Assembly: GCA_037927135.1 (NCBI GenBank)
Contig: JAXSPP010000008.1
Coordinates: forward strand, 19,281 to 83,280
Direction: 5' to 3'
DNA length: 64,000 nucleotides
DNA from: Candidatus Pampinifervens sinense
GTDB lineage: Bacteria > Aquificota > Aquificia > Aquificales > Aquificaceae
Shown here piece after piece: positions 43,559-55,921 of the stretch (its first letter is position 1; each line of letters opens with the position of its first letter). Under the pieces are notes generated by a model that did not search any database, had not been told where the DNA came from, and worked only from the letters and a program-made list of their open reading frames with translations. The translations under genes were made by a program, and so were the position numbers.

Positions 43559-44269
43559 TTATACCATGAAAAAATTTTCTAGTATACCTTTAACTTCCTG
43601 AGTATATTCTCCATTTTCTTCATTAATTATAAGAGGTTTTTCAACATTAAGCCTAGGATTAAGATTTTTCAATGCATAAATATGCACCAGTTTAGCATTT
43701 TTAGTAACCTTTGGATAAAAAATCCTAATTGAAAGAACATTTGTATTATATTTTTTCATATAAAGGGCAGCCTCCAGCAACCTATCTGAAGAAACTAATA
43801 AGTTAAATCCTCTTCCATCCTTAAGCAAAAAACTTCCAGCTCTTATAAAATCTTCAAGTGTAGTATCTATTTCATGATGATATACATTATCTGAAGTTGT
43901 TCCTTTATAAAAGGGAGGATTGGCTATTATGGCGTCAAAGAATTGTGGCTTAAAGCCTTTTTCTATGTATTTTATGTCAAGGTTAACTACATGAACTCTA
44001 TCTTCTAAATTGTTAATCTTTACGTTGTAAGAAAGTAGGTCTAGCATGGTGCTATCCCTCTCTATAGCCCAAACCTGACACTCATATCTTAGAGCGGTAA
44101 GTATAGAGAGGGTGCCAAAGCCTGCTCCAAGGTCTGCTACTTTAAAACCTCTTTTTATCCCCTTAAGATTGGCCACAAACAGGATCTCTACTATTGAAAG
44201 CCTATGGGCCTTCGGCTGCTTAAACTTTACCTTACCCCTAAAGAATTCAAACTCTTTAAACTCTTCCAA
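43559..44269 (-). CDS. SAM-dependent methyltransferase, tRNA1(Val) A37 N6-methylase (YfiC/TrmN6)-like
   Basis: DLGAGFG motif I and NPPF motif IV. Confidence 0.78.
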   Translation of the reverse strand: MEEFKEFEFFRGKVKFKQPKAHRLSIVEILFVANLKGIKRGFKVADLGAGFGTLSILTALRYECQVWAIERDSTMLDLLSYNVKINNLEDRVHVVNLDIKYIEKGFKPQFFDAIIANPPFYKGTTSDNVYHHEIDTTLEDFIRAGSFLLKDGRGFNLLVSSDRLLEAALYMKKYNTNVLSIRIFYPKVTKNAKLVHIYALKNLNPRLNVEKPLIINEENGEYTQEVKGILENFFMV

Positions 44270-44657
44270 ACCTTTCTACTAGCTCAAGTAAAGTCCTAGC
44301 CCTTTCCTTTACCCTTTCCCATTCTTCTATCTCTTCCATAGTTTGGGCTGTAGCAAGCTTCTTTACCGCCTGATCAAAGAGTTCCTTTTCCTTTCCTGGA
44401 TCTATCTCCCCTATATTGTAAGCTTCCTCTGCAAGGATTATGACCTTTTCCGGTGTGACATCCACAAAGCCGTAGGTTACTGCAATGCCATTTTCCATCT
44501 TGCCATCAAAGTAGACAAGCCCAGGCTTTAGCATGGTCATGAGATACATATGCTTTTCCAAAACTCCTATCTCACCCTCTACAGTAGGTATGTTTACAGA
44601 ATTTACCTCTTTAGAAAAGTGCAGGCCCTTGGGCGTGACTATCTCCACCTTAATCAT
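44256..44657 (-). CDS. atpC: F0F1 ATP synthase epsilon subunit
   Basis: EIVTP, GEIGVLEKH, GFVDV, ILAEEA. Confidence 0.92.
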   Translation of the reverse strand: MIKVEIVTPKGLHFSKEVNSVNIPTVEGEIGVLEKHMYLMTMLKPGLVYFDGKMENGIAVTYGFVDVTPEKVIILAEEAYNIGEIDPGKEKELFDQAVKKLATAQTMEEIEEWERVKERARTLLELVERFGRV

Positions 44658-45088
44658 GGCTTTAAAATTATACCATCCTTTTTTCTGCTATCTCTAAAGA
44701 GCTCATGGCATGCCATACAACCCTGTATCATCCATATGTAGGTTTGAAAAGCTTGATCTCTCTTACCTTCCTTTACAAACTTTATGACCTCCTCTGCACC
44801 ACCATGGATTTGTCTTTCAAAGGTAGGCATAAATTTTATAAACTCTTCTCTCTTTGATGGGTCTACGTATTTTAAAGGTCCTCCCTTTGGTGTAGGATGC
44901 TCAGCTATCTCCTTAGCTCCCTCAATTATCAACCAATCGTTGTTTAAAAGAAAGCCTTGAAGCATCTTTATAGCCGACATGTTTACCATCTGCATCACCT
45001 GTTTAAAGGTGAGATTACTTTCTTGCGTATGCTCATGGGCAAAACCAAGACTAAGGCTTAAGGCAAGGGCAAATCCCACTTTTCTCAT
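44654..45088 (-). CDS. Periplasmic monoheme cytochrome c with C-terminal CxxCH (class II / cytochrome c'-like)
   Basis: Signal peptide, helical body, CMACH near the C-terminus. Confidence 0.75.
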   Translation of the reverse strand: MRKVGFALALSLSLGFAHEHTQESNLTFKQVMQMVNMSAIKMLQGFLLNNDWLIIEGAKEIAEHPTPKGGPLKYVDPSKREEFIKFMPTFERQIHGGAEEVIKFVKEGKRDQAFQTYIWMIQGCMACHELFRDSRKKDGIILKP

Positions 45089-45089
45089 A

Positions 45090-45581
45090 CTACAACCTCC
45101 TTATCTTTATCTTCCAGTAGCTACCTTCATAGGCCACATACTCCCATCCCACCTTTTTGGGAAAGGCCATACTCATCTGAAAGTAAAGGGGTAAGGGGTC
45201 GTGGTCGTTTATGATGAAAAAGGCTTCGCCTTTGGCGGTTTTGGAAAACCTTTCCATCACCAAAGGGTGCCTTCTGCCATGCTCTATACTTCTTAAATCA
45301 ATGGTTTCACCATCTTGAAGGCTTTCCCCTCCAAAGGCTATCTCATATATTTCTGCTTCGCCTTCACACATAAAGCCAAATAACTCAGCCCTCTTCACAT
45401 AAAAGACTGCAGGAGCCTCCACCCTATCAAACCTCTGTCCCAGTATGTACCTTCCCGAGCCCTTTGAAAGGATATAAACCCTCTCATAGCCTACCGCCGA
45501 GGGCATAAGGGTGTCTTTTAAAAGCCTTAGATAAACGCCATCTAAACTAAAGCCCTTTCCTACTTCGGGTATTACCAGCAT
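45090..45581 (-). CDS. Cupin-like + DUF2249 domain protein
   Basis: C-terminal IDLR...RH...INDHDPLPLYFQ...W.I.I DUF2249 pattern. Confidence 0.75.
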   Translation of the reverse strand: MLVIPEVGKGFSLDGVYLRLLKDTLMPSAVGYERVYILSKGSGRYILGQRFDRVEAPAVFYVKRAELFGFMCEGEAEIYEIAFGGESLQDGETIDLRSIEHGRRHPLVMERFSKTAKGEAFFIINDHDPLPLYFQMSMAFPKKVGWEYVAYEGSYWKIKIRRL

Positions 45582-45615
45582 GGTTTAGAATGTAGGTCTT
45601 AAGTTAAGTATGTAA

Positions 45616-45629
45616 ATGATTACAATCAT
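45616..45629 (-). promoter_or_regulatory. DNR/FNR-like palindrome ATGAT-N4-ATCAT
   Basis: ATGATTACAATCAT centred 41.5 bp upstream of ATG 45581; TACATT -10 lies 7 nt before that ATG. Confidence 0.6.
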
Positions 45630-45646
45630 AAGAGTTAGATATATAT

Positions 45647-47584
45647 TCACCTTAGAACTACAAAGCTCCCAGTAGCATCATCGTAAGTTATAAGCACGCT
45701 CTCTTTTGGTTTTTGGGGTGTTTCAAACTCAATTTCTTTCACCTTCTCCTTATGGGCTATCTCTTCCAACCTTAGCCTTAGTTTTTTCCCTTTGGGTTCT
45801 AAAAAGATCTCATCATAGACAAAGAGTGAAGCATCCTTTCTTAGACCCCTTGGATAAAAGGTCTTTGAGTAAATCGTCTTTCCTTCTGAGATTATTTCCA
45901 CCTTAATAGGTGACCTCTCCTTTGCTATAGCCAGCTGTGTTTGCATATGCTTTAGACCCTCTTTTTTAACCATGGCTTCCTTGACAGGAGAGGACCTATA
46001 CTTAAAGTTTAGAACCACTGCAGATTTGTGGGTAGGATAAAAGGACATCTTATAAGTTGTTAGAGGATAGAAAAGAAAAGTTGGTATGGTAAGGATAAGT
46101 GTGGCTACTACGTAGTTTGTCTTTTCTAAAGCTATTATCTTGGGTTCTTTACCAGTTTTTTCTTCCTTCATAAACTCATCCACTTCCTTTTCAATGGGTT
46201 TTACGTAAGGAGCCTCCAGTATAAGCACCTTTCCTCCCAACACCCTTTTCCTCAAGATAGGTCTTCTTTCCCTCTTGTACCTTTCCTCCAACCATTTGTT
46301 GCCTTCCCTAAAGTAGCAGTCCTCATACTCACAGGAAACTAGGATAAGGCCTTCCAATCCCATATCAAGTAGCTCCTCTGCATAGAGGGTATTTACAGCA
46401 CCTATACAAGGCACTGTAAAGGAAAGAAGCCCTTTTCTCTCAGGAAGCTGGGCGCTAAAAGGACATCTAAAGGCTAAGTAAGAGGGCTTTTCTTTCCTCA
46501 CCCTCTCTATTATTTCCACAATAGGAAAAGTGGGAATGTCTATACTTTTTACACTGCAAGACCCTACACATATACCACAGCCGGCACACTTTCCTTCATT
46601 CAAAACAGCCTTTTTATCTCCATCAAAGCTTCTCATGGTTATGGCCTCATAAGGACAGTCTATATAACACTGCTCACATCCAGTGCATCTTTCAAGGTTT
46701 ATTTGTGCGGGAGGGTTTCTCCTTCCCTTTATGAGCCATGGGAAAACAAAAAGGAAGGTGAAGAATCCTAAGAATAGGATCCAATTGGCAGACATGGGAA
46801 GGTATTTAAGAAGTGGATAGCCAAAGAAATAAAACCAGTCAAGGCTCATCTCAAAGGGTAGCTTTTCTATGTAGGCTGGTGGGTCACTCTTTGCGGGGAA
46901 AAGTATGGAGAGGGCTATAAGAAGTAAGGTTATGGTTATATAAAGGAACTTGGGAGGTATGAGCCTTGGCCTTGCATTTCTCATCACATGAATCCAAAGG
47001 GTAAAGACTATGAGAATGGTGAGGGCTATGTGGGCAAAGAGGAGTATTCTGAAGAGGCCACTCAGATACTTTACATCTTTGCCAAGGAAAGCACTCATAA
47101 GAACATCTCCAAAGACTGGTAGAAAAGAAAAGAACTTAGCAGTCAGTATTCCAAGGAGCTGTGCCTTTGTGTCCCAAACTAGGATATAACCAGAGATGCC
47201 TATGGCTAAAAAGATGAGTAAAGTAGCGATCCCTGTCACCCAAGCCACCCATCTAAAGAGTCTAAACCTATCTGTTATGATCACGTGAATCATATGAGCG
47301 ATAGTGGTAAGAATCAAGGCATCAGATGAGTACCTATGTATGCCTCTCATTATGTTTCCTAAAAAGCTGTGTGATATAGCTTCCACCGAAGCATAGGAAG
47401 ATTTTGGATCTATGCTGTAAAAAAGGAAGAGGTAAACACCAGAGATTACATCTATGACAAGAAGGAATACAGCTATAGCTCCAAGGTGGTAGAGTGGGTT
47501 TAGCCTGGAGGAAAAAAACTTGCTTAAGGTGTAGGAGATCTTTTGGAAGGCTATGTAAAAGGGTTGTATGCTTATCACTTCCAT
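45647..47584 (-). CDS. Cytochrome b / 2x[4Fe-4S] / MvhD-like [2Fe-2S] multidomain membrane protein
   Basis: Cytochrome b His pairs (RGIHRY...AHMIH; FAHIA...WIHV); CTGCEQCYIDCP and CAGCGICVGSC; MvhD-like FRC...VPCIG...SCEYEDCYF; further C-terminal TM plus soluble domain. Confidence 0.82.
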   Translation of the reverse strand: MEVISIQPFYIAFQKISYTLSKFFSSRLNPLYHLGAIAVFLLVIDVISGVYLFLFYSIDPKSSYASVEAISHSFLGNIMRGIHRYSSDALILTTIAHMIHVIITDRFRLFRWVAWVTGIATLLIFLAIGISGYILVWDTKAQLLGILTAKFFSFLPVFGDVLMSAFLGKDVKYLSGLFRILLFAHIALTILIVFTLWIHVMRNARPRLIPPKFLYITITLLLIALSILFPAKSDPPAYIEKLPFEMSLDWFYFFGYPLLKYLPMSANWILFLGFFTFLFVFPWLIKGRRNPPAQINLERCTGCEQCYIDCPYEAITMRSFDGDKKAVLNEGKCAGCGICVGSCSVKSIDIPTFPIVEIIERVRKEKPSYLAFRCPFSAQLPERKGLLSFTVPCIGAVNTLYAEELLDMGLEGLILVSCEYEDCYFREGNKWLEERYKRERRPILRKRVLGGKVLILEAPYVKPIEKEVDEFMKEEKTGKEPKIIALEKTNYVVATLILTIPTFLFYPLTTYKMSFYPTHKSAVVLNFKYRSSPVKEAMVKKEGLKHMQTQLAIAKERSPIKVEIISEGKTIYSKTFYPRGLRKDASLFVYDEIFLEPKGKKLRLRLEEIAHKEKVKEIEFETPQKPKESVLITYDDATGSFVVLR

Positions 47585-47596
47585 CCTTTACCTCCT

Positions 47597-47614
47597 TGTA
47601 AATACATACTTACT
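47597..47614. promoter_or_regulatory. Operator-like palindrome copy (TGTAAAT-N4-ACTTACT)
   Basis: Immediately upstream of the AGGAGG SD of the cytochrome b fusion gene; matches copies at 47721 and 52130. Confidence 0.55.
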
Positions 47615-47685: not shown

Positions 47686-47741
47686 TTGACAATAATACCA
47701 TTTTATTTTAAACTTAATCCTGTAAGTAATCACTTACAGGA
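47686..47741 (+). promoter_or_regulatory. Sigma70-type promoter with overlapping perfect palindrome
   Basis: TTGACA(47686)-N17-TAAACT(47709); TCCTGTAAGT-AATC-ACTTACAGGA (47718-47741) covers the predicted +1 and the start of the SD. Confidence 0.7.
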
Positions 47742-47749
47742 GGTAGAAC

Positions 47750-47926
47750 ATGGAGGAGAAAAAAAAGACTCCTTTCCTTCAGCTGGTCATGGACGATTTT
47801 ATGCTTCTCTTCCTCATAGGGGTTACCATCTATGCCGTCTTTTACCTTATCTGGGGCCTTATGGAACTGGCATGGCTCTCGCCCATACCGGAGGAGTTAA
47901 AAGCATCACTTTTGGGAGGTAAGTGA
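47750..47926 (+). CDS. 58-aa single-TM small subunit of the heme-copper operon (subunit IIa-like)
   Basis: Below ORF cutoff; AGGAGG SD; MEEKKKTPFLQLVMDDFMLLFLIGVTIYAVFYLIWGLMELAWLSPIPEELKASLLGGK; stop 1 nt before subunit II ATG. Confidence 0.8.
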   Translation: MEEKKKTPFLQLVMDDFMLLFLIGVTIYAVFYLIWGLMELAWLSPIPEELKASLLGGK

Positions 47927-47927
47927 C

Positions 47928-48458
47928 ATGAGCCTGCTACCACCTGAAGAAGGATGGTACTTTAAGAAGGTAGCAAAGGATGAGAAGATGTGGATAGCCC
48001 TTGCCTTAGTGGTATGCCTTATCCTCTTTTTCTGGATGATTGTCTGGCACATCTACGGAAAGCAAAACCCCTCCTTTACCACCTACAGAACAACTCCTCA
48101 GGAGTTTAACGCTCTGGCTACAGCCTTTATAGAAAAGTACAAAGTAGGTGAGATGAACGGAATACCTGTGGTTGAACCGCCACCCAACAGCGATGTTTTC
48201 CTTGTGGCCAAGATGTGGAGATGGGAGCCCGTTTTGGTGCTCAAAAAGGGCCAAGAGTACAGGTTCCACATATCTTCTTTAGATCTCTTACATGGCTTTT
48301 CTTTGCAACCTGTCAACATGAACTTTATGGTCTATCCGGGATATGACTATGTGCTTACCTTTAGGCCTACCTCTGCTGGGGAGTTTGCCATAGTGTGCAA
48401 TGAGTTTTGCGGTATAGGACATCACATGATGATAGGAAAGATCATAGTCAAAGAATAA
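47928..48458 (+). CDS. Heme-copper oxidoreductase subunit II with CuA site
   Basis: Single TM; DLLHGF and CNEFCGIGHHMM CuA ligands (B-family-like architecture). Confidence 0.9.
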   Translation: MSLLPPEEGWYFKKVAKDEKMWIALALVVCLILFFWMIVWHIYGKQNPSFTTYRTTPQEFNALATAFIEKYKVGEMNGIPVVEPPPNSDVFLVAKMWRWEPVLVLKKGQEYRFHISSLDLLHGFSLQPVNMNFMVYPGYDYVLTFRPTSAGEFAIVCNEFCGIGHHMMIGKIIVKE

Positions 48459-48469
48459 GGAGGTAAGCC

Positions 48470-50137
48470 ATGTTTAGGATGTGTGATATTACAGGCCTAA
48501 AGGTGGACTTAAATGCCGAAAAGCTTATAAAGCTTAACGCTGTTATGGCCGTTGTCTCCCTTCTTATCGGTGTGATCGGAGCCCTCCTTTTGGTGCTCAC
48601 AAGATGGCAGGTGGTGCATCTTTTGCCGGTGGATTGGTACTATAGAGTGCTCACCCTTCATGGCCTCAACGCCTTAATATTCTGGATAGTCTTCTTTGAG
48701 ATAGCAGGCCTCTACTTTGGTTCTACCATAGTGCTAAACTCTAGGATGTCTTCACCAAAGCTTGGATGGTTTGCCTTCATCCTTATGGTCCTAGGCTTTC
48801 TCCTTGTCAACTACACCATACTGACTGGAAAGGCTGACGTTTTGATGACCTCTTACGCTCCTTTGCAGGCACACCCAGTTTATTATCTAGGCATTATCCT
48901 TTTTGCAGTTGGTGCCCTCATAGGTGTTCTTCTTTTCTTTGCAAACCTTATGATAGCTAGGAAAGAAGGGACATATGGAGATTCCCTACCTCTGTTTACT
49001 TACGGTCTTATGGCAGCTGCCATAATAGCCTTTATAACCCTTGCCACTGGCGCCATAATATATATTCCCACCTTCCTTTGGTCTTTGGGAATCATAAAGA
49101 GCATAGATGCGGGTGTTTATAAGCTCGTCTGGTGGGGTTTTGGACATTCCTCACAGCAGATAAATGTAACGGCTATGATAGCCGTGTGGTATCTTGGAGC
49201 TTTTCTTACGGTTGGTGGTACATCCATCAATGAAAAGGTAAGCAGGATAGCCTTTCTCCTTTACATTATAGGTATAAACGTAGCTTCAGCACATCATCTT
49301 TTAGTAGACCCAGGGCCTAGCCCCGTTTGGAAAGTCTTTAACACAAGCTACATCATGTACTTGGCAGTCCTTGCCTCTATGATACATGCCTTTGCTGTTC
49401 CATCCGCCATTGAATCGGCCCAAAGGAGAAGAGGCTTTACAAAGGGTCTTTTTGACTGGCTCAAAAACGCTCCATGGGGCAACCCAGCCTTTTCGGCCAC
49501 ATTCCTTTCTATCATCATCTTTGGCTTTATAGGTGGTATAACGGGTGTAGTAAACGGTATGGAACAAACCAACATAATAGCCCACAATACCCTTTCCATA
49601 CCAGGACACTTTAAAGGAACTGTGGTGGGTGGAACTACCTTAGCCTTCATGGGTATTACCTACTACCTTATACCCCTTGTGTTTAGAAAGCGCATCTCCT
49701 TCTTTGGTCTTGCCAAGCTACAGCCTTGGGTTTTTGGCATAGGGATAGCCATATTGGCTGTATCCATGTACATACTTGGAGCCTTTGGTGTTCCAAGAAG
49801 ACACTACGATATTACCTTCTCCGGAGGACCCTTTACCTATACTTTTAACCCAGCTACAGACTTCTTCTGGGCCCTCTTTGCCATAGGTGGCCTAATGGCT
49901 GTTATAGGTGCCTTAATGTGGATACTTATAGTGGTCTTTTCTGTCTTCTTTGGTGCTCCTTTGAGAGGTCCTCAGGATATGCAACTTCAAATAGCCTCAC
50001 CCCCACCACCAGCCAAAGAAAACCATGGCTTTGAAGCTCCAGGAACTCTTGCCCTTACCCTTCTCTTCATGGCCACCTTCATCATATTCCTACTTCTCAA
50101 CTGGGGATGGCTCGCAGCCATGTGGGAGGTAAGGTAA
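48470..50137 (+). CDS. Heme-copper superfamily subunit I, eNOR-like (putative nitric oxide reductase)
   Basis: H64 (LHG); helix VI GH226SSQQ230 with Gln where O2 reductases have the cross-linked Tyr; H275H276; helix X GH380FK382; PRR loop. Confidence 0.8.
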   Translation: MFRMCDITGLKVDLNAEKLIKLNAVMAVVSLLIGVIGALLLVLTRWQVVHLLPVDWYYRVLTLHGLNALIFWIVFFEIAGLYFGSTIVLNSRMSSPKLGWFAFILMVLGFLLVNYTILTGKADVLMTSYAPLQAHPVYYLGIILFAVGALIGVLLFFANLMIARKEGTYGDSLPLFTYGLMAAAIIAFITLATGAIIYIPTFLWSLGIIKSIDAGVYKLVWWGFGHSSQQINVTAMIAVWYLGAFLTVGGTSINEKVSRIAFLLYIIGINVASAHHLLVDPGPSPVWKVFNTSYIMYLAVLASMIHAFAVPSAIESAQRRRGFTKGLFDWLKNAPWGNPAFSATFLSIIIFGFIGGITGVVNGMEQTNIIAHNTLSIPGHFKGTVVGGTTLAFMGITYYLIPLVFRKRISFFGLAKLQPWVFGIGIAILAVSMYILGAFGVPRRHYDITFSGGPFTYTFNPATDFFWALFAIGGLMAVIGALMWILIVVFSVFFGAPLRGPQDMQLQIASPPPPAKENHGFEAPGTLALTLLFMATFIIFLLLNWGWLAAMWEVR

Positions 50138-51399
50138 TGCTCTTCTTCCTCTCCCTTTCTCTCTTTTCACTCCTTCTTGCTGGCATCTTCGGGCTCCTCA
50201 TAGCCCTCACAAGGGCTCCCCTCTTTAAACTCCTTGATTCACCCCTTCTCTTTTACCACTTTTTAGTGGGCCATGTGACCTTTTCTATTACAGTCTGGCT
50301 TATGACCTTTGGTATGGCCTTTTGGCACTACAAGGAGGGCAGGAAGGGGAAGGTAGCACCTCCAGCCACCCTACTCGGTATGCTTTTCCTTTCCCTCTCC
50401 TGCCTTTTTCCCTATGGACAGCCCCAACTCAACAATTATATACCAGTCATAGAGAATCCTATCTTCTACGCAGGCCTTACTCTTTTCTTCTTGGGCTTTT
50501 CTTCAGAGGTACTTTTTAGACTACCGAAAGCTGTAAAAAGCCTTTTGACCCAAGATACACAAACACAACTACTGTCCTTATCCATTATCTTTGGCCTTTT
50601 GACAGTGCTGTCCCTTCTTCTATCCTTGCTCCTTGTAAAAGGTGAAGGAAAGCTCTACTTTGAAAGGCTCTTTTGGATACCTGGACACCTTCAGCAGTTT
50701 ATGTACACAGCCCTTATGCTATGCGTATGGCATGAGCTATTGAAGAAAAACTCCGGAGTGCAAATATCAAGCCCCATTATAAGCTCAGCAAACCTCTTTA
50801 TGCTCCTTTTCTCCTTGACCCTCTTTTATGGCTACCTTACAGATATGCTCTCCCATGGCTTTAGGCTTCTTGTGGTCCTCTCCTTTGGAATAGGCTTGGG
50901 TGTGCCCGTCTTTGTACACACCTTCTATGTGCTAAGGAATATGAGGATAAACAAGGATGTGTCTACCTTGTCCTTGGTCTCTTCCATGCTTGTGTACTAT
51001 GTAGGCGAGTTTATAGCCTACGGTGGGATGCAGAGCGACCTTAGAATACCGGCCCATTATCATGGTGTAGTTTCCGGAGTAACCATAGCCTTTATGGGCC
51101 TTACCTACTATATGCTAAAGGAAAGGCTTGGTTTTGTAAGCTGGGAGAAGTTTGCCAAGCTTCAGCCTGTCATATTTGGTCTTGGTATAAACCTTTTGGT
51201 GATAGGTTTTTACATTGCTGGCCTTTTGGGAGCACCAAGAAAAACTTATGGCTTTGAGTATGTGCAAAAGGCTGAGGTACTTCTTGCTTTGAACGTGATG
51301 GGTATGGGAAGCTTGCTCGCCGTAGCTGGCGGACTTCTCTTCCTCTTTTACTCCCTTGCATCCCTTCTGAGGGTATACAAACATGGTAAAGGTTCTTAG
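50137..51399 (+). CDS. Degenerate heme-copper subunit-I paralogue (polytopic membrane protein)
   Basis: VGHVTFS, FWIPGHLQQF, IPAHYHG, GAPRK; no HH motif; ATG 50137 overlaps the upstream TAA. Confidence 0.72.
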   Translation: MLFFLSLSLFSLLLAGIFGLLIALTRAPLFKLLDSPLLFYHFLVGHVTFSITVWLMTFGMAFWHYKEGRKGKVAPPATLLGMLFLSLSCLFPYGQPQLNNYIPVIENPIFYAGLTLFFLGFSSEVLFRLPKAVKSLLTQDTQTQLLSLSIIFGLLTVLSLLLSLLLVKGEGKLYFERLFWIPGHLQQFMYTALMLCVWHELLKKNSGVQISSPIISSANLFMLLFSLTLFYGYLTDMLSHGFRLLVVLSFGIGLGVPVFVHTFYVLRNMRINKDVSTLSLVSSMLVYYVGEFIAYGGMQSDLRIPAHYHGVVSGVTIAFMGLTYYMLKERLGFVSWEKFAKLQPVIFGLGINLLVIGFYIAGLLGAPRKTYGFEYVQKAEVLLALNVMGMGSLLAVAGGLLFLFYSLASLLRVYKHGKGS

Positions 51400-52114
51400 T
51401 CTCCTTTTTATACTCCTTTCCCTTTGTTTCTCCAACCTTTTGCCCGATGAAAAGAAAACCATCGGCACCTATATGCCTAACATAAGGCTTCAGGACCATG
51501 AGGGGAAGGTCTATAGCCTAAAGGATCTTTCGCAGGGTAAGGTTCTCATAATAAATCCCATATATACCAAATGCTCCTCCGCTTGTCCTGTAATGACAGA
51601 AGAGCTAAAGAAGGCTATAAAAGGCCTTGAGGAGGATGTAAAGGTCCTTTCCATAACCTTTGACCCACGGGATAGTATATTGGACCTAAAAAGGTTTAGG
51701 GAAGTTCATAGTCTTCCAAACAACTGGCTTGTGGCAAGGAGCGATGAAGTGGATAAGCTTTTAAAGGCTATAGACTACAAGTACAGGTATGATGAGAGGC
51801 TTAAAGAGTTTGAACATCCCAACCTCTATGTGGTCATTACACCTTCCGGAAAGATATCAAGATACATATACGGCGTGAGTCCAAGGCTTAGAGACCTAAG
51901 GCTCTCAGTGCTTGAGGCAAAAAAAGAAGACGCAAGCCTTACCCCTGTGGAGAGCTTCTGGCTTAGATGCTTTAGATACAACATAGAGACGGGCACTTAT
52001 CAGATAGACTGGTTTTTCATCTTTGATGTGATGGGAGGTCTTCTTACCTTCATTGTAGTTCCTCTCTTGGTTTGGGGAAGACAGCTTTGGGTCCTATTAA
52101 AGATTTTTCGGTAA
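51383..52114 (+). CDS. SCO1/SenC family copper chaperone
   Basis: YTKCSSACP (CxxxC), SITFDP, FEHP; C-terminal TM. Confidence 0.88.
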   Translation: MVKVLSLLFILLSLCFSNLLPDEKKTIGTYMPNIRLQDHEGKVYSLKDLSQGKVLIINPIYTKCSSACPVMTEELKKAIKGLEEDVKVLSITFDPRDSILDLKRFREVHSLPNNWLVARSDEVDKLLKAIDYKYRYDERLKEFEHPNLYVVITPSGKISRYIYGVSPRLRDLRLSVLEAKKEDASLTPVESFWLRCFRYNIETGTYQIDWFFIFDVMGGLLTFIVVPLLVWGRQLWVLLKIFR

Positions 52115-52121
52115 AAAAATC

Positions 52122-52171
52122 TTGACATTTGTAAATAAACACTTATAATTATAAATATGACATAAATCATA
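52122..52171 (+). promoter_or_regulatory. nirS promoter with two operator-like palindromes
   Basis: TTGACA(52122)-N16-TATAAT(52144); TGTAAAT-AAAC-ACTTATA (52130-52147); TATGAC-ATAA-ATCATA (52156-52171) over +1. Confidence 0.7.
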
Positions 52172-52186
52172 CAAGGAGGTGTGGAC

Positions 52187-53836
52187 ATGAAAAAGTACCT
52201 GCTTAGTGGGATCTTTGGAATGGCAACAGTCTTTGGCCTTTTCACTGTGGTGCCTTCCTTGGCGCAGCAAAAGGAGGATCTCCCCGCCCTCTCTCAAGAG
52301 GAGATGAAGAGAGCAGCCCAGATCTACTTTGACAGGTGTGCTGGATGCCATGGAACTCTTAGAAAAGGTGCCACTGGACCAAACCTATTGCCCGAAAAGA
52401 CAAGGAAGATGGGTGTGGAGACGCTCAAAACCTTTATAACCTATGGAACGCCCGGTGGTATGCCAGACTGGGGAAGGCAGGGATTGCTTAGCCCTCAGGA
52501 GATTGAGCTTTTGGCCAAGTTTTTACTCCATGAGCCACCACCCCCACCAGAGATGTCCTTGGAAGACATGAAGAAGCATTGGAAGGTGTATGTTCCACCG
52601 GAAAAGAGGCCAAAAAAACCCGAACACAACAGAAACTGGCAGAACTTTATGGCTGTCATACTTAGAGATGCTGGAAAGGTTGCCATAATTGACGGTGATA
52701 CAAAGGAACTCGTGAACATAGTGGACACTGGCTTTGCAGTCCATATAGTAAGGTATTCAGCCTCCGGTCGTTATCTGTACACCATAGGAAGGGATGGAAA
52801 GGCTACAATAGTGGACCTGTGGATGAAAAAGCCAGATACGGTTGCTGAAGTAAAAGCATGCTATGACGCAAGGTCTATAGACTCATCCAAATACAAAGGT
52901 CCAAAGGGAGACTTTCTAGATAAGTATGCCATCATAGGATGCTATTGGCCTCCTCATATGGTAATACTGGACGGGCAAACTTTGGAACCTCTAAAGATAA
53001 TTTCAACGAGCTCTTATACCTATGATACTAATGAGTTTGTAAGGGAGGCAAGGGTAGCATCCATAGTGGCTTCCCACCATGACCCAGAGTGGGTGGTAAA
53101 CATAAAGGAGGCTGGACAGATATGGCTTGTGGACTACTCTAACATACGCGCCCCTAGGATAACCATGATAGAGGCAGAGAGGTTCCTACACGATGGCGGT
53201 TGGGATGCCTCAAAGAGATACTTCTTGGTTGCTGCAAACTTCAGAGACACCATATCCATAGTGGATACTAAGGAAAAGAAGCTTGTCAAGAATGTAAAGG
53301 TGGGCAGAATACCACACCCAGGAAGGGGTGCCAACATAGACCATCCCAAGTATGGACCCATATGGTGCACAGGACACCTTGGAGACAACACCATCCAATG
53401 CATTGGCACAGACCCCGTCAGGTATCCCCAGTATGCCTTTAAGGTAGTTGCCAAGTTTGAAATGCCCGGTGAGGGTGGAGGAAACCTATTTATAAAGACT
53501 CATCCCAAATCCCCCCATATTTGGGTAGACAGGCCTCTAAATAACGACCCTAAACTGCAAAGGTCTATCTTTGTCTTTGACAAATACACCTTTAAGCTAA
53601 AGGCTCAGATAGAGATACCAGAAAAGTATGCTGGAAGGGCTGTCCATCTTGAGTACAACAAGAACGGTGATGAAGTGTGGGTCTCTGTTTGGGGTAAAAA
53701 GAACGAGCCACACAAACAAGCCATACTTGTTTACGATGACAAAACCCTAAAGCTCAAGCATGAGATCACAGGAGACTGGGTGGTAACTCCCACTGGACAC
53801 TTCAACGTCTACAACACCATGAAGGACATCTACTGA
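52187..53836 (+). CDS. nirS: Cytochrome cd1 nitrite reductase
   Basis: Signal peptide; CAGCHGTLRKGATG heme c; GFAVH, FLHDGG, PHPGRG, LFIKTHP, TGHFNVYNT; AAGGAGG SD fits ATG 52187. Confidence 0.96.
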   Translation: MKKYLLSGIFGMATVFGLFTVVPSLAQQKEDLPALSQEEMKRAAQIYFDRCAGCHGTLRKGATGPNLLPEKTRKMGVETLKTFITYGTPGGMPDWGRQGLLSPQEIELLAKFLLHEPPPPPEMSLEDMKKHWKVYVPPEKRPKKPEHNRNWQNFMAVILRDAGKVAIIDGDTKELVNIVDTGFAVHIVRYSASGRYLYTIGRDGKATIVDLWMKKPDTVAEVKACYDARSIDSSKYKGPKGDFLDKYAIIGCYWPPHMVILDGQTLEPLKIISTSSYTYDTNEFVREARVASIVASHHDPEWVVNIKEAGQIWLVDYSNIRAPRITMIEAERFLHDGGWDASKRYFLVAANFRDTISIVDTKEKKLVKNVKVGRIPHPGRGANIDHPKYGPIWCTGHLGDNTIQCIGTDPVRYPQYAFKVVAKFEMPGEGGGNLFIKTHPKSPHIWVDRPLNNDPKLQRSIFVFDKYTFKLKAQIEIPEKYAGRAVHLEYNKNGDEVWVSVWGKKNEPHKQAILVYDDKTLKLKHEITGDWVVTPTGHFNVYNTMKDIY

Positions 53837-55449
53837 TGAGATACCTACTTCTTCCCCTACTCCTCCTTTCCCTTTCCTTTGGGGTAGGGGAGGGGCTTTA
53901 TCAAAAGTATTGTTCTTCTTGTCATGGTGAAGACAGGCTTGGGAGGGGTGCACCTCTCCTCTTTCCCCCCTTTTTTATACCAAAGTCTGAAGAAAGAATA
54001 TACCAGGTGATAAAAAAGGGCACCATTGGAATGCCAAGCTTTGAGCATCTAAAAGAAGATGAGATAAGGGCCATAGTTGAGTTTATAAAAGGGCCTGTGG
54101 ATGAAAATAAGTTAAGGTGGAGCAGAGAAGACATAGAGAAGAGCCAAAGCCTATCTCATGTGGAAAAGGTAAGGATAAACAACCTGAGGGGCCTTACTGT
54201 AATGGTGGAGAGGGGGAAAGGTCTCCTTTGGGTGATGGAGGGCTTGGAGGTCCTCAGCAAGGTCCCTGTATCTTACGTGCATGGTGGGGTAAAGTTTTCT
54301 AAGGATGGAGAAGTTTACATACCGTCAAGAAGTGGATGGATAAGCAAGTACTCGCCGGAGAAGGGAGAGATAAAAAAGGTAAGAGCCTGTATATACCTGA
54401 GGAACATAGCTCTCTCTTCTGATGGGAAAGTTCTTGTAGCCTCTTGCTGGCTTCCTCCCTCCCTGGTCTTTTTTGACAAGGACCTAAGACTTATACAGAT
54501 AAAAGAGGTAAAAGGCAAGATAAACGCAGTTTATGAGCTTCGCAACGGCAAAGGCTTTATCTTTACCTTCAGAGACAGGCCCTATGTGGGTCTTTTGAAC
54601 AAGAATGGAAGAATAACCTACAAAGAGCTAGATATCAGCTTGGAAGACTTTACCATAGACCCCCTTGAAGAGTACCTTATAGGTAGCACAAAAGACGGCC
54701 TAAGGATATACTCTTTGAAGGACCTAAAGCTTGTAAAGGAGCTAAAGGCCCTTGGCCTTCCTCACCTTGCTTCTTCCTACTTTTGGTACTCAAAGGGTGA
54801 GTTTTACTTTGCCACCCCACTCCTTGGAAAGCCCCTCCTGTCTATATGGAAGGCTTATAAATGGGAGCATGTAAAGGACATTCCTCTCAAAAGCTTTGGC
54901 TTTTTGGCAAGAAGCAACTATGGCACACCTTATGTATGGGTGGATGAATCCTCGGACACCTTGGCCCTTTTGGACAAAAGAAGCTTAGAGCTAATAAGAA
55001 TAAGGCCAGTGGAAGGCAAAAGGGCTACGCATACAGAGTTTTCCTCAGATGGCAGGCTTGCCTACGTGAGCCTTGAGGATGCTTTAATAATCTATGATGG
55101 AGTGAGCCTCAAAAAGCTAAGAGAATTCCCTGCAAGTATGCCCGCTGGAAAGTATAACTTCTTTAACAAAAGTAGAATCTTTGAAGCTTCCCAGCTTGGC
55201 CATCAGGTTTTTATGGAAAAGTGTTGGGGATGCCACCATACCACAGAGCAAGCCTTTGGACCTCCACTAAAAGGGTCTGCCAAGAAAAGGGATAAGGCCC
55301 TCATAATGGCCCAGATACTTGACCCGCAGAATACCCATAAGCTCTTGGGATATTCAAGGAACGTCATGCCACGTATAGACCTAAGAGAAGAGGAGCTAAA
55401 GGCCCTCATAAGCTTTATGGAGGCGTTAAAGGATGGCTGGATGGATTGA
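53836..55449 (+). CDS. nirN: NirN-like dihydro-heme d1 dehydrogenase with extra C-terminal cytochrome c domain
   Basis: N-terminal CSSCHGEDRLG, HGGVKFS, GLPHL, THTEFS, PAGKYN; second CWGCH...MP domain at the C-terminus. Confidence 0.8.
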   Translation: MRYLLLPLLLLSLSFGVGEGLYQKYCSSCHGEDRLGRGAPLLFPPFFIPKSEERIYQVIKKGTIGMPSFEHLKEDEIRAIVEFIKGPVDENKLRWSREDIEKSQSLSHVEKVRINNLRGLTVMVERGKGLLWVMEGLEVLSKVPVSYVHGGVKFSKDGEVYIPSRSGWISKYSPEKGEIKKVRACIYLRNIALSSDGKVLVASCWLPPSLVFFDKDLRLIQIKEVKGKINAVYELRNGKGFIFTFRDRPYVGLLNKNGRITYKELDISLEDFTIDPLEEYLIGSTKDGLRIYSLKDLKLVKELKALGLPHLASSYFWYSKGEFYFATPLLGKPLLSIWKAYKWEHVKDIPLKSFGFLARSNYGTPYVWVDESSDTLALLDKRSLELIRIRPVEGKRATHTEFSSDGRLAYVSLEDALIIYDGVSLKKLREFPASMPAGKYNFFNKSRIFEASQLGHQVFMEKCWGCHHTTEQAFGPPLKGSAKKRDKALIMAQILDPQNTHKLLGYSRNVMPRIDLREEELKALISFMEALKDGWMD

Positions 55450-55921
55450 AAGCATATCAAAGATAAGGAGGCCCCATTTGGGTGAGGATGTGCCAGTGTT
55501 GGTGTTTAGAGCCTTTAGGGTATTCACGGGCATGTATTTGGAGGATACGGTGGGCCATAAGGGAGCTATAACCCTTGTGCAGAACGCAGGAAGAGAGTTT
55601 GGAAAAGAGGTGGGCAAAAGGCTAAGACATGAGGATTTAGACAAATACATCATGAATGTGGCGGACTTTGTCAAAGACCTACGAGTGGGCCTCTTAATAC
55701 CAATTGAAAGGAGTGAGGAGAGGATCGTGGTAGCTCTTGATGAGTGTATTACATGCTCCGGCATGCCAAACATAGGAAAGAAGATATGCCACTTTGAGGC
55801 TGGCTTTGTGGCTGGTATAGTGGAAAGCTACCTAAACAAAAGGGTAAGGGTTTATGAAAGCAAGTGCAACGCCCATGGAGACAACGTATGCGAAGTGGTG
55901 GTGGAGCTCAACTATGCTTAG
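55433..55921 (+). CDS. Stand-alone V4R domain protein
   Basis: ECITCSG...ICHFEAGFVAG...ESKC...GD..CE V4R pattern. Confidence 0.8.
   Translation: MAGWIESISKIRRPHLGEDVPVLVFRAFRVFTGMYLEDTVGHKGAITLVQNAGREFGKEVGKRLRHEDLDKYIMNVADFVKDLRVGLLIPIERSEERIVVALDECITCSGMPNIGKKICHFEAGFVAGIVESYLNKRVRVYESKCNAHGDNVCEVVVELNYA

Follow-up and report, generated by a model that had tools for sequence, protein, structure and literature searches.

We analyzed a 64,000-nucleotide stretch of the genome of Candidatus Pampinifervens sinense (contig JAXSPP010000008.1, positions 19,281 to 83,280, forward strand; hereafter the window) and focused on cytbFeS (P0001), a gene that fuses a cytochrome b to ferredoxin and MvhD-like iron-sulfur (Fe-S) domains. 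It lies divergent from an operon for a nitric oxide (NO) reductase-like haem-copper enzyme of the eNOR type. The genetic link between the two is strong and well supported: in no fewer than three phyla, and with both eNOR subtypes, they are adjacent and co-inherited. The gene and its parts are as follows.

45647..47584, minus strand: cytbFeS, encoding a 645-residue fusion protein (open reading frame [ORF] call, Pfam, full-length homologues)
46715..47584, minus strand: cytochrome b core, residues 1-290, helices A-F (Pfam PF00033, invariant histidines, Foldseek, VIA)
46535..46708, minus strand: 2x[4Fe-4S] ferredoxin domain, residues 293-350 (two CxxCxxCxxxC(P) motifs, Pfam Fer4 families)
46130..46522, minus strand: MvhD/FlpD-like domain, residues 355-485, with Cys374, Cys393, Cys418 and Cys423 (Pfam FlpD, profile search)
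46058..46114, minus strand: predicted seventh transmembrane (TM) helix, residues 491-509 (AlphaFold2 [AF2] helices; superposes on helix G of cytochrome b)
45650..46057, minus strand: predicted periplasmic beta-sandwich, residues 510-645 (alignments, AF2 domain model with a pLDDT of 87)

The ORF starts with an ATG preceded at 7 nt by a GGAGG Shine-Dalgarno sequence, and full-length homologues of about 645 residues occur in Aquificota, Nitrospirota and Bacteroidota. An earlier note, made from the sequence alone, had placed the gene at the same coordinates and had described a diheme cytochrome b, a dicluster ferredoxin, an MvhD-like cysteine pattern, a further TM helix and a soluble domain. Pfam, profile searches, alignments and the AF2 model bore this description out.

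The Pfam family Cytochrome_B (PF00033) matched residues 21-200 with an E value of 5.4e-16 (59 bits; cut-off, 27.2). In an alignment of 90 homologues reaching down to 24% identity, the haem-ligating pairs H83/H97 and H185/H199 are invariant. The spacing within each pair is 14 residues, with two histidines on helix B and two on helix D. cytbFeS thus has the four-helix-bundle histidine pattern of the cytochrome b superfamily, together with a bc1-type fold that includes helices E-G. Where bc complexes have PEWY in the e-f loop, we found the Qo-like motif L248-D249-W250-F251. Its first residue is Leu and not the Pro of the pattern P-[E/D/V/P]-W-[Y/F], which makes it an xDW[F/Y] version of the motif. 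D249 is kept in at least 90% of the aligned sequences; the Trp never varies among 13 close sequences, though it does in a distant clade.

In the same alignment, all eight ferredoxin cysteines (C300/303/306/310 and C333/336/339/343) are invariant, four dicluster families (Fer4_21, Fer4_7, Fer4_9 and Fer4_10) reach their Pfam cut-offs at residues 293-348, and the closest PDB sequence match to this domain is the C-terminal ferredoxin domain of HdrA. Pfam FlpD/MvhD (PF02662) matched residues 389-440 at 1.2e-6 (29 bits; cut-off, 22.3) and was detected in 53 of 57 distant members, with a best E value of 7e-22. Here C374, C393 and C418 are invariant, and C423 is present in at least 90% of sequences. 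A single-sequence PDB search with residues 289-480 returned ferredoxin domains only; the MvhD match emerged only with a profile. Using one made from 22 homologues (residues 355-485), we retrieved six distinct MvhD or MvhD-related PDB sequences at E values of 1e-9 to 8e-5, the next match being at 0.14 or above. An NCBIfam scan gave no equivalog. Its best partial matches were, at residues 293-441, the C-terminal portion of HdrA2 (7e-17) and, further, cytochrome b ExtP and cytochrome b6. We found none of the domains of Alternative complex III (molybdopterin-like, NrfD-like, multihaem c) in P0001 or in its scanned window neighbors.

The AF2 model, built on the 90-homologue alignment, reached a pLDDT of 93.9 and a pTM of 0.90. 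Its closest Foldseek matches were the cytochrome b subunits of bc1 complexes (E value, 3e-9), and VIA superposed it on bc1 cytochrome b with Z scores of 20-24 and root mean square deviations of 2.3-3.5 Å over about 255 residues. Many VIA alignments placed model residues 14-516 on bc1 cytochrome b residues 23-344. Since these alignments run through model residue 516, the helix at residues 491-509 occupies the place of helix G, and the Fe-S/MvhD module of about 200 residues lies between helices F and G. The N-terminus of cytochrome b is on the negative side of the membrane. Homology with cytochrome b topology would therefore put the Fe-S module in a cytoplasmic F-G loop and the last 135 residues in the periplasm, and the basic residues in the B-C loop, in the D-E loop and after helix F agree with this. 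By homology, then, cytbFeS appears to be a seven-helix bc1-type cytochrome b with a cytoplasmic Fe-S/MvhD insert and a periplasmic C-terminal domain.

That C-terminal beta-sandwich has conserved K528-Y529-x-S531, R557-S558-P559 and P578-x-G580-x-R582-x-D584 motifs. We considered and rejected a cupredoxin or copper chaperone identity for it: Foldseek returned nothing at an E value of 0.001 or better, and VIA gave only generic sandwiches at Z scores of 8.0 or below (PepT2 extracellular domain, CBM26, HGSNAT luminal domain, transthyretin-like and also Ig-like folds). A complex prediction of cytbFeS with eNOR subunit II scored 0.03 and 0.12 against a mark of 0.32, which carries no weight either way.

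As the earlier note had said, there is no Rieske or cytochrome c1 gene beside cytbFeS among the scanned window ORFs. No Rieske domain was found among 74 neighbors in 12 related loci either. cytbFeS is not a Rieske/cytochrome b complex in the sense of one with its Rieske subunit encoded alongside. The genome does have two Rieske matches, on two other contigs, C1 and C4, and the C4 copy adjoins a canonical cytochrome b. The suggestion that the fusion serves as an alternative to the bc1 complex is not supported: the genome keeps this canonical pair, and our results do not point to quinol:cytochrome c activity. Hydrogenase and Hdr genes were likewise absent from the scanned window ORFs and the 12 scanned loci, where the neighbors are eNOR, SCO1, nir, nos and haem-biosynthesis genes. 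cytbFeS is not part of a hydrogenase/Hdr system, and the usual MvhD role of joining hydrogenase or formate dehydrogenase to HdrA does not apply to it.

We examined gene order in two sets of loci. The first was drawn from 413 confirmed relatives in species-representative genomes, of which the best 80 were analyzed; the second comprised 80 of 258 confirmed relatives in metagenomes, from a distant clade 27-30% identical to cytbFeS. Only loci with at least 3.5 kb of upstream flank were counted, and eNOR genes were located by tblastn with the window proteins. An eNOR-type COX1 lies upstream of the fusion in 59 of 63 genome loci (42 co-directional, 17 divergent) and is adjacent in all 33 metagenome loci. 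The divergent arrangement is that of Aquificota and some Nitrospirota. In Bacteroidota, the co-directional order is Crp, COX2::cytochrome c, COX1, SCO1, cytbFeS. The distant clade has a COX1-like gene, COX2, COX1, SCO1, cytbFeS and a UbiA-type prenyltransferase gene, often followed by nirS. The four genome loci with no adjacent eNOR are all from Nitrospirota, and in the two that we checked, an eNOR COX1 is on another contig (67% and 76% identity). The earlier note had proposed a functional link to the NOR-like operon and had named homologues detached from haem-copper and nir genes as the finding that would speak against it; the link held in both sets, and presence and absence of the two genes matched in three phyla (see below).

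The partner enzymes carry the eNOR signature. Nearly all of 106 partner COX1 ORFs have the Gln signature (xxQQ). PGHFK occurs in 62 ORFs of the genome set (all that could be scored), and PGHFH occurs in 33 ORFs of the distant set; the association therefore spans both the His/Lys and the His/His eNOR subtypes. In every phylum, a c-type cytochrome lies close by, either as its own gene or as part of a fusion; in two Bacteroidota loci, eNOR subunit II itself ends in a cytochrome c domain (L075:6411-7355 and L035:6422-7429), and a Crp-family regulator gene stands ahead of the operon in L035. Each locus has a single MvhD-type gene, and a second adjacent cytochrome b paralogue was found in 0 of 160 loci. 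Tandem paralogues (two or three, 33-38% identical to the Magnetobacterium protein) do occur in some Nitrospirota genomes (G483:C97, G520:C13, G540:C15 and G499:C107), on the same contig as an eNOR COX1, an arrangement reminiscent of the two genes of Ferrigenium. Identity across phyla is 67-76% for COX1 and 36-56% for the fusion protein; the far higher conservation of COX1 suggests lateral spread of the module. One contig binned as a Bathyarchaeota metagenome-assembled genome (L001) carries a fusion gene 90% identical to that of the window, with the same two downstream genes (the DUF2249/CxxCH pair described below), and is probably mis-binned.

Two of the recurring neighbors raise the possibility that the fusion protein is a maturation factor for eNOR, a redox protein that assists in inserting or making its cofactors, e.g., by donating or withdrawing electrons while CuA and metal B are loaded together with SCO1, or in making its modified haem A when O2 is scarce. 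In Bacteroidota and the distant clade alike, the gene immediately before cytbFeS is SCO1; the gene after cytbFeS is of the UbiA type (haem O synthase-like) in the distant clade and in two Nitrospirota loci. The eNOR enzymes contain a modified haem A, and haem A synthesis by CtaA needs O2 (section 6 of PMC11214002; 10.64898/2026.01.22.701106). However, two haems, three clusters and a conserved Qo-like site would be heavy equipment for a chaperone, and the periplasmic domain offers neither conserved metal-type ligands nor a likeness to cupredoxins or copper chaperones among its listed matches. The genome also has its own CtaA, and the related Ferrigenium proteins were reported in the proteome of growing cells (10.64898/2026.01.22.701106), though a chaperone could be found there as well. 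We consider a maturation role unlikely. The gene for CtaA (haem A synthase) has a second, weak COX1-like gene (446 residues, 45 bits) some 1 kb away, on contig C1 (220201-223170).

Co-inheritance was scored in 780 sampled genomes from three phyla, 53 of which have both genes, 7 only one and 720 neither.

Aquificota, 178 genomes: 28 with both, 2 with the fusion only, 1 with eNOR only, 147 with neither
One Bacteroidota order, 301 genomes: 10 with both, 0 with the fusion only, 0 with eNOR only, 291 with neither
Nitrospirota, 301 genomes: 15 with both, 2 with the fusion only, 2 with eNOR only, 282 with neither

These are raw counts from related genomes that are not independent and are hence given without a statistic. 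Aquificota have the fusion in 30 genomes and eNOR COX1 in 29, and where only one of the two survives (three genomes), that gene is a small fragment or lies close to or at the end of a contig. In each of the 10 Bacteroidota genomes, the pair shares one contig. The distribution is patchy within genera (8 versus 7 of 24 genomes in the genus of the window), which shows that fusion and eNOR are gained and lost together. Could the gene be a hitch-hiker or an annotation artefact with no functional tie to eNOR? The four loci lacking adjacency and the few genomes with one gene of the two would fit such an explanation. Against it, the cofactor ligands are invariant down to 24% identity, genomes with both genes number 53 against 7 with one, and the SCO1-cytbFeS order is kept between clades less than 30% identical, which makes it very improbable. 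As a redox partner of the NOR-like enzyme, cytbFeS is well supported on genetic grounds.

In the window, the genes around cytbFeS are these.

47750..47926, plus strand: single-TM ORF of 58 residues, first gene of the eNOR operon (sequence)
47928..48458, plus strand: eNOR subunit II (Pfam COX2)
48470..50137, plus strand: eNOR subunit I (Pfam COX1, 7.6e-68; motifs GHSSQQ, AHH and PGHFK)
50107..51399, plus strand: degenerate COX1 paralogue of 430 residues (Pfam COX1, 4.7e-19)
51383..52114, plus strand: SCO1/SenC-like copper chaperone (Pfam)
52181..53836, plus strand: cd1 nitrite reductase NirS (Pfam), followed by nirN/J/F/E-like (haem d1) genes
45090-45581, minus strand: DUF2249 protein, downstream of cytbFeS
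44654-45088, minus strand: 144-residue signal-peptide protein with a C-terminal CMACH, downstream of the DUF2249 gene

The neighboring oxidase is an eNOR by its sequence signature, from which its NO reductase role is read. In subunit I, the GHSSQQ motif puts a Gln at the position of the cross-linked Tyr, four residues past the first metal-B His; this is the eNOR hallmark, described as Q-245 where ba3 has Y-237 (Dataset S1 of PMC11214002; PMC8756737). The PGHFK motif has a Lys in place of the second low-spin-haem His (H-x-H in other oxidases), and ligation of the low-spin haem by His and Lys is described for some eNORs (PMC11214002). Subunit II is of the CuA type: its ligands H122, C157, E159, C161, H165 and M168 are invariant in 45 sequences. 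According to section 6 of PMC11214002, NO reductase without O2 reductase activity is known only for the Rhodothermus marinus (R. marinus) enzyme.

The 58-residue ORF had no family match and may be a small oxidase subunit; a 75-residue ORF stands at the matching position in L075. The first 31 nt of the degenerate COX1 paralogue are shared with the end of the subunit I gene. The paralogue keeps a GH motif and an H-x-H pair, with V-H-T replacing the A-H-H of subunit I. The distant clade has a COX1-like gene of 457-480 residues upstream of COX2 (L110:3059-4501). These genes are probably the "eNOR scaffold protein" of a 2026 preprint (10.64898/2026.01.22.701106). We rejected the paralogue as a universal fifth gene of the operon. 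It is a separate gene only in close Aquificaceae, and the tblastn matches elsewhere fall within COX1 and therefore reflect paralogy.

Downstream of cytbFeS, the DUF2249/CxxCH pair is kept in Aquificaceae relatives. The 144-residue protein has a single haem c motif and a signal-peptide-like N-terminus, and neither Pfam nor PDB sequences gave a match. It could carry electrons in the periplasm or be a cytochrome that binds NO; to call it cytochrome c-prime-like would be a guess. The CxxCH gene overlaps by 4 nt a lone atpC (ATP synthase epsilon; 44256-44657, minus strand), an odd partner for denitrification genes, and a methyltransferase gene follows atpC with a 14-nt overlap. A V4R-domain protein is encoded at 55433-55921 within the nir cluster. 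Only 65 nt separate the fusion and DUF2249 genes in the window (45581-45647). Close relatives have a nos cluster at this point (nosZ, nosD, ABC ATPase, nosL and two cytochromes c; L002:11913-18432). With the L002 NosZ as query, no NosZ was found in the window's genome, which is 99.96% complete, and the organism may therefore stop at N2O. Contigs from one hot-spring DNA run cover the island.

As the earlier note had claimed, the promoters of the fusion, eNOR and nirS genes share an operator-like site. It is a 16-bp palindrome, GTAART-N4-ACTTAY, at 47598, 47722 and 52131.

47598..47613, no strand: operator-like palindrome GTAAATACATACTTAC, 2 nt upstream of the cytbFeS Shine-Dalgarno sequence
47722..47737, no strand: perfect palindrome GTAAGTAATCACTTAC, at about +1 of the eNOR promoter and abutting its Shine-Dalgarno sequence
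52131..52146, no strand: third palindrome copy GTAAATAAACACTTAT, between -35 and -10 of nirS

The 165-bp region between cytbFeS and the eNOR operon contains two back-to-back promoter-like sites. Genome-wide, the palindrome occurs at four sites in 1.55 Mb, these three and one other, a count that is partly circular because the motif was derived from the three island sites. All three positions are conserved in Aquificaceae relatives, and more distant Aquificota have one site ahead of the fusion gene; in the Nitrospirota and Bacteroidota loci checked, we found the palindrome only as one stray match. The nirS copy lies outside the transcript, so a DNA operator accounts for the three copies better than an RNA hairpin would. 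The palindrome is thus best explained as a putative DNA operator common to the three promoters. No Crp/Fnr or Rrf2 gene was seen among the scanned island ORFs. Taken together, the account in the earlier note stood in its domains, the missing Rieske and c1 genes, the operator and the NOR link, and was not supported in the bc1 alternative, with a Rieske/cytochrome b pair encoded on C4.

How might such a protein work with eNOR? From the ligands, the fold, the topology by homology, the linkage and the co-inheritance, we tentatively favor a Rieske-less quinol-oxidizing module that sends its second electron to cytoplasmic clusters. cytbFeS would be a dedicated redox subunit of the eNOR module, a cytochrome b of the bc1/b6f kind with haems bL and bH that has lost its Rieske partner and carries, in the F-G loop, an Fe-S wire made up of a [4Fe-4S] pair and a single [2Fe-2S] cluster of the MvhD type. 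Quinol would be oxidized in the retained Qo-like pocket on the periplasmic side. The first electron would pass to the high-potential side, through a c-type cytochrome and/or the CuA of eNOR, and on to NO. The second would cross the membrane by way of bL and bH and leave along the three Fe-S clusters for a soluble acceptor in the cytoplasm, with no quinone reduction at a Qi site. We infer here the direction of electron flow, the physical contact with eNOR and the nature of the partner in the cytoplasm.

Several points weigh against a Rieske-less quinol-oxidizing module. A Qo site normally requires the Rieske His as proton and electron acceptor, and no such acceptor is encoded near cytbFeS among the scanned window ORFs. 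The alignments show no conserved Cys, His or Met pattern in the periplasmic domain, i.e., no redox-type ligands. Quinol driving low-potential Fe-S clusters needs a very oxidizing partner on thermodynamic grounds. The distant-clade gene sits between SCO1 and a UbiA-type gene, a maturation-like neighborhood, and the four Nitrospirota loci with no adjacent eNOR also count here. The host's own Rieske/cytochrome b complex could feed cytochrome c. Finally, purified R. marinus eNOR is active with N,N,N',N'-tetramethyl-p-phenylenediamine (TMPD)/ascorbate, and section 6 of PMC11214002 mentions no such subunit.

A bolder form of the quinol-oxidizing module, which we regard as doubtful, is that eNOR and cytbFeS together make a bifurcating quinol:NO oxidoreductase that lacks a Rieske protein. 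The NO/N2O couple, being very oxidizing, would pull the first electron through CuA, and the second would be forced through the membrane and along the Fe-S wire to reduce a low-potential cytoplasmic carrier, proposed to be ferredoxin, or NAD(P)+ in variants with FAD/NAD domains. If so, NO respiration would directly yield a strong reductant for CO2 fixation in autotrophs such as Aquificaceae.

The same wire could also run the other way. Electrons from a donor in the cytoplasm, be it ferredoxin, a flavoprotein or, for variants with FAD/NAD-binding domains, NAD(P)H, would pass through the Fe-S clusters to bH, bL and the periplasmic side and so to eNOR, bypassing the quinone pool. NOX/FRE-type dihaem reductases follow a similar logic. 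Every step would then be downhill, aided by the membrane potential; the cytoplasmic wire matches the wire from MvhD to the HdrA ferredoxin, which is fed by a soluble donor, and strict coupling to an enzyme with a periplasmic-facing acceptor fits as well. Such an inside-out conduit leaves unexplained why the entire Qo-forming part (helices E-G, the e-f loop and the conserved Asp) is retained. It also has to contend with the bL haem of bc1, which lies too deep for electrons to reach the surface directly unless a quinone is bound, and it would waste a low-potential reductant. Relatives with FAD and NAD(P)H domains exist, as described in PMC4122944 and in the 2026 preprint (10.64898/2026.01.22.701106), and are in its favor. 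On balance, we hold this direction to be possible and rather unlikely.

Alternatively, both quinol electrons might go inward to a soluble acceptor under nitrosative stress, in the manner of NarI/NarH, with the gene merely co-regulated with eNOR. The layout is that of systems with a membrane anchor plus an Fe-S subunit, and NO-related soluble proteins are encoded nearby in some lineages (DUF2249 in the window; a hemerythrin and an Rrf2 regulator in L011). Yet no soluble partner is conserved across the examined phyla, whereas eNOR is. Typical MvhD and ferredoxin clusters have potentials below that of quinol, and the route would therefore be uphill without a second, oxidizing outlet. We find it quite improbable.

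The significance of cytbFeS lies with eNOR itself. Enzymes of this type are described as among the commonest NO reductases in nature, with physiological donor and energy yield unknown (PMC11214002). A cytochrome b/Fe-S subunit that is conserved and inherited together with them offers a concrete candidate for their missing electron link. Quinol oxidation at a Qo site without a Rieske protein would, if true, be new for the bc family, and would bear on how Q-cycle bifurcation can be rewired and on how much energy or reductant denitrifiers gain at the N2O-forming step. In practice, the gene is a marker that predicts an eNOR, which is often mis-annotated as a cytochrome oxidase.

Compared to known systems, cytbFeS resembles the cytochrome b of bc1, bcc and b6f complexes in its helices A-G, its four haem histidines with bc1 spacing, its c-d and e-f loops, and an acidic residue with aromatics in the Qo motif; the best structural matches are QcrB subunits of actinobacterial bcc-aa3 supercomplexes (e.g., 9ftz_H and 7q21_B). 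Unlike these, it has no adjacent Rieske or cytochrome c1/c partner gene and no helix H, and it has gained the 200-residue Fe-S module in the F-G loop and the periplasmic beta-sandwich. With the Mvh-Hdr complexes (5odc, 7bkb and 8rvv) it shares MvhD and HdrA C-terminal ferredoxin modules in series. The context differs, being a membrane cytochrome b and a haem-copper NO reductase, and no HdrA-like flavoprotein is encoded nearby in the scanned window ORFs and 12 loci. The Rieske/cytochrome b complexes of anammox bacteria, as treated in PMC12954380, share the idea of Qo-type bifurcation under a strong oxidant pull, in which the second electron is pushed onto a low-potential acceptor in the cytoplasm, proposed there for NAD(P)H generation. 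They retain the Rieske protein and separate subunits, and their function is likewise unproven.

Our literature search returned no functional study of a cytochrome b-FeS-MvhD fusion, and only a 2014 paper and the 2026 preprint touch on it; no such gene comes up in the cited sections of the main paper on eNOR (PMC11214002). Kao and Hunte (2014; PMC4122944) described a "PDWF-FeS clade" of cytochrome b with a 4Fe-4S domain, an MvhD domain and a PDWF/PDWY-type Qo motif, and named Magnetospirillum magneticum AMB-1 among the carriers. cytbFeS has this architecture (xDWF/Y) and is matched to the clade by that description and not by tree placement. The passages of that paper on the clade give the architecture only; gene context, eNOR link and function are absent from them. 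As presented in the available text of the preprint (10.64898/2026.01.22.701106), the eNOR operon of Ferrigenium straubiae contains cytochrome b-[Fe-S](-FAD-NADH) genes with sco1, haem O synthase and a "scaffold" gene, the proteins were detected in the proteome of cells grown by denitrification, and the authors propose a supercomplex that would couple the reduction of NO to that of NAD+. There are two paralogues in that operon, of which one has FAD/NADH domains, and these genes are called "rather unusual" there; in our loci, a single gene is found and the association is the rule. The protein family (2014) and one instance of the eNOR link (2026) were thus already in print, and what we add is that the link is general, holding in three phyla or more and for both eNOR subtypes, the reading of helix G and the F-G loop, and the shared operator.

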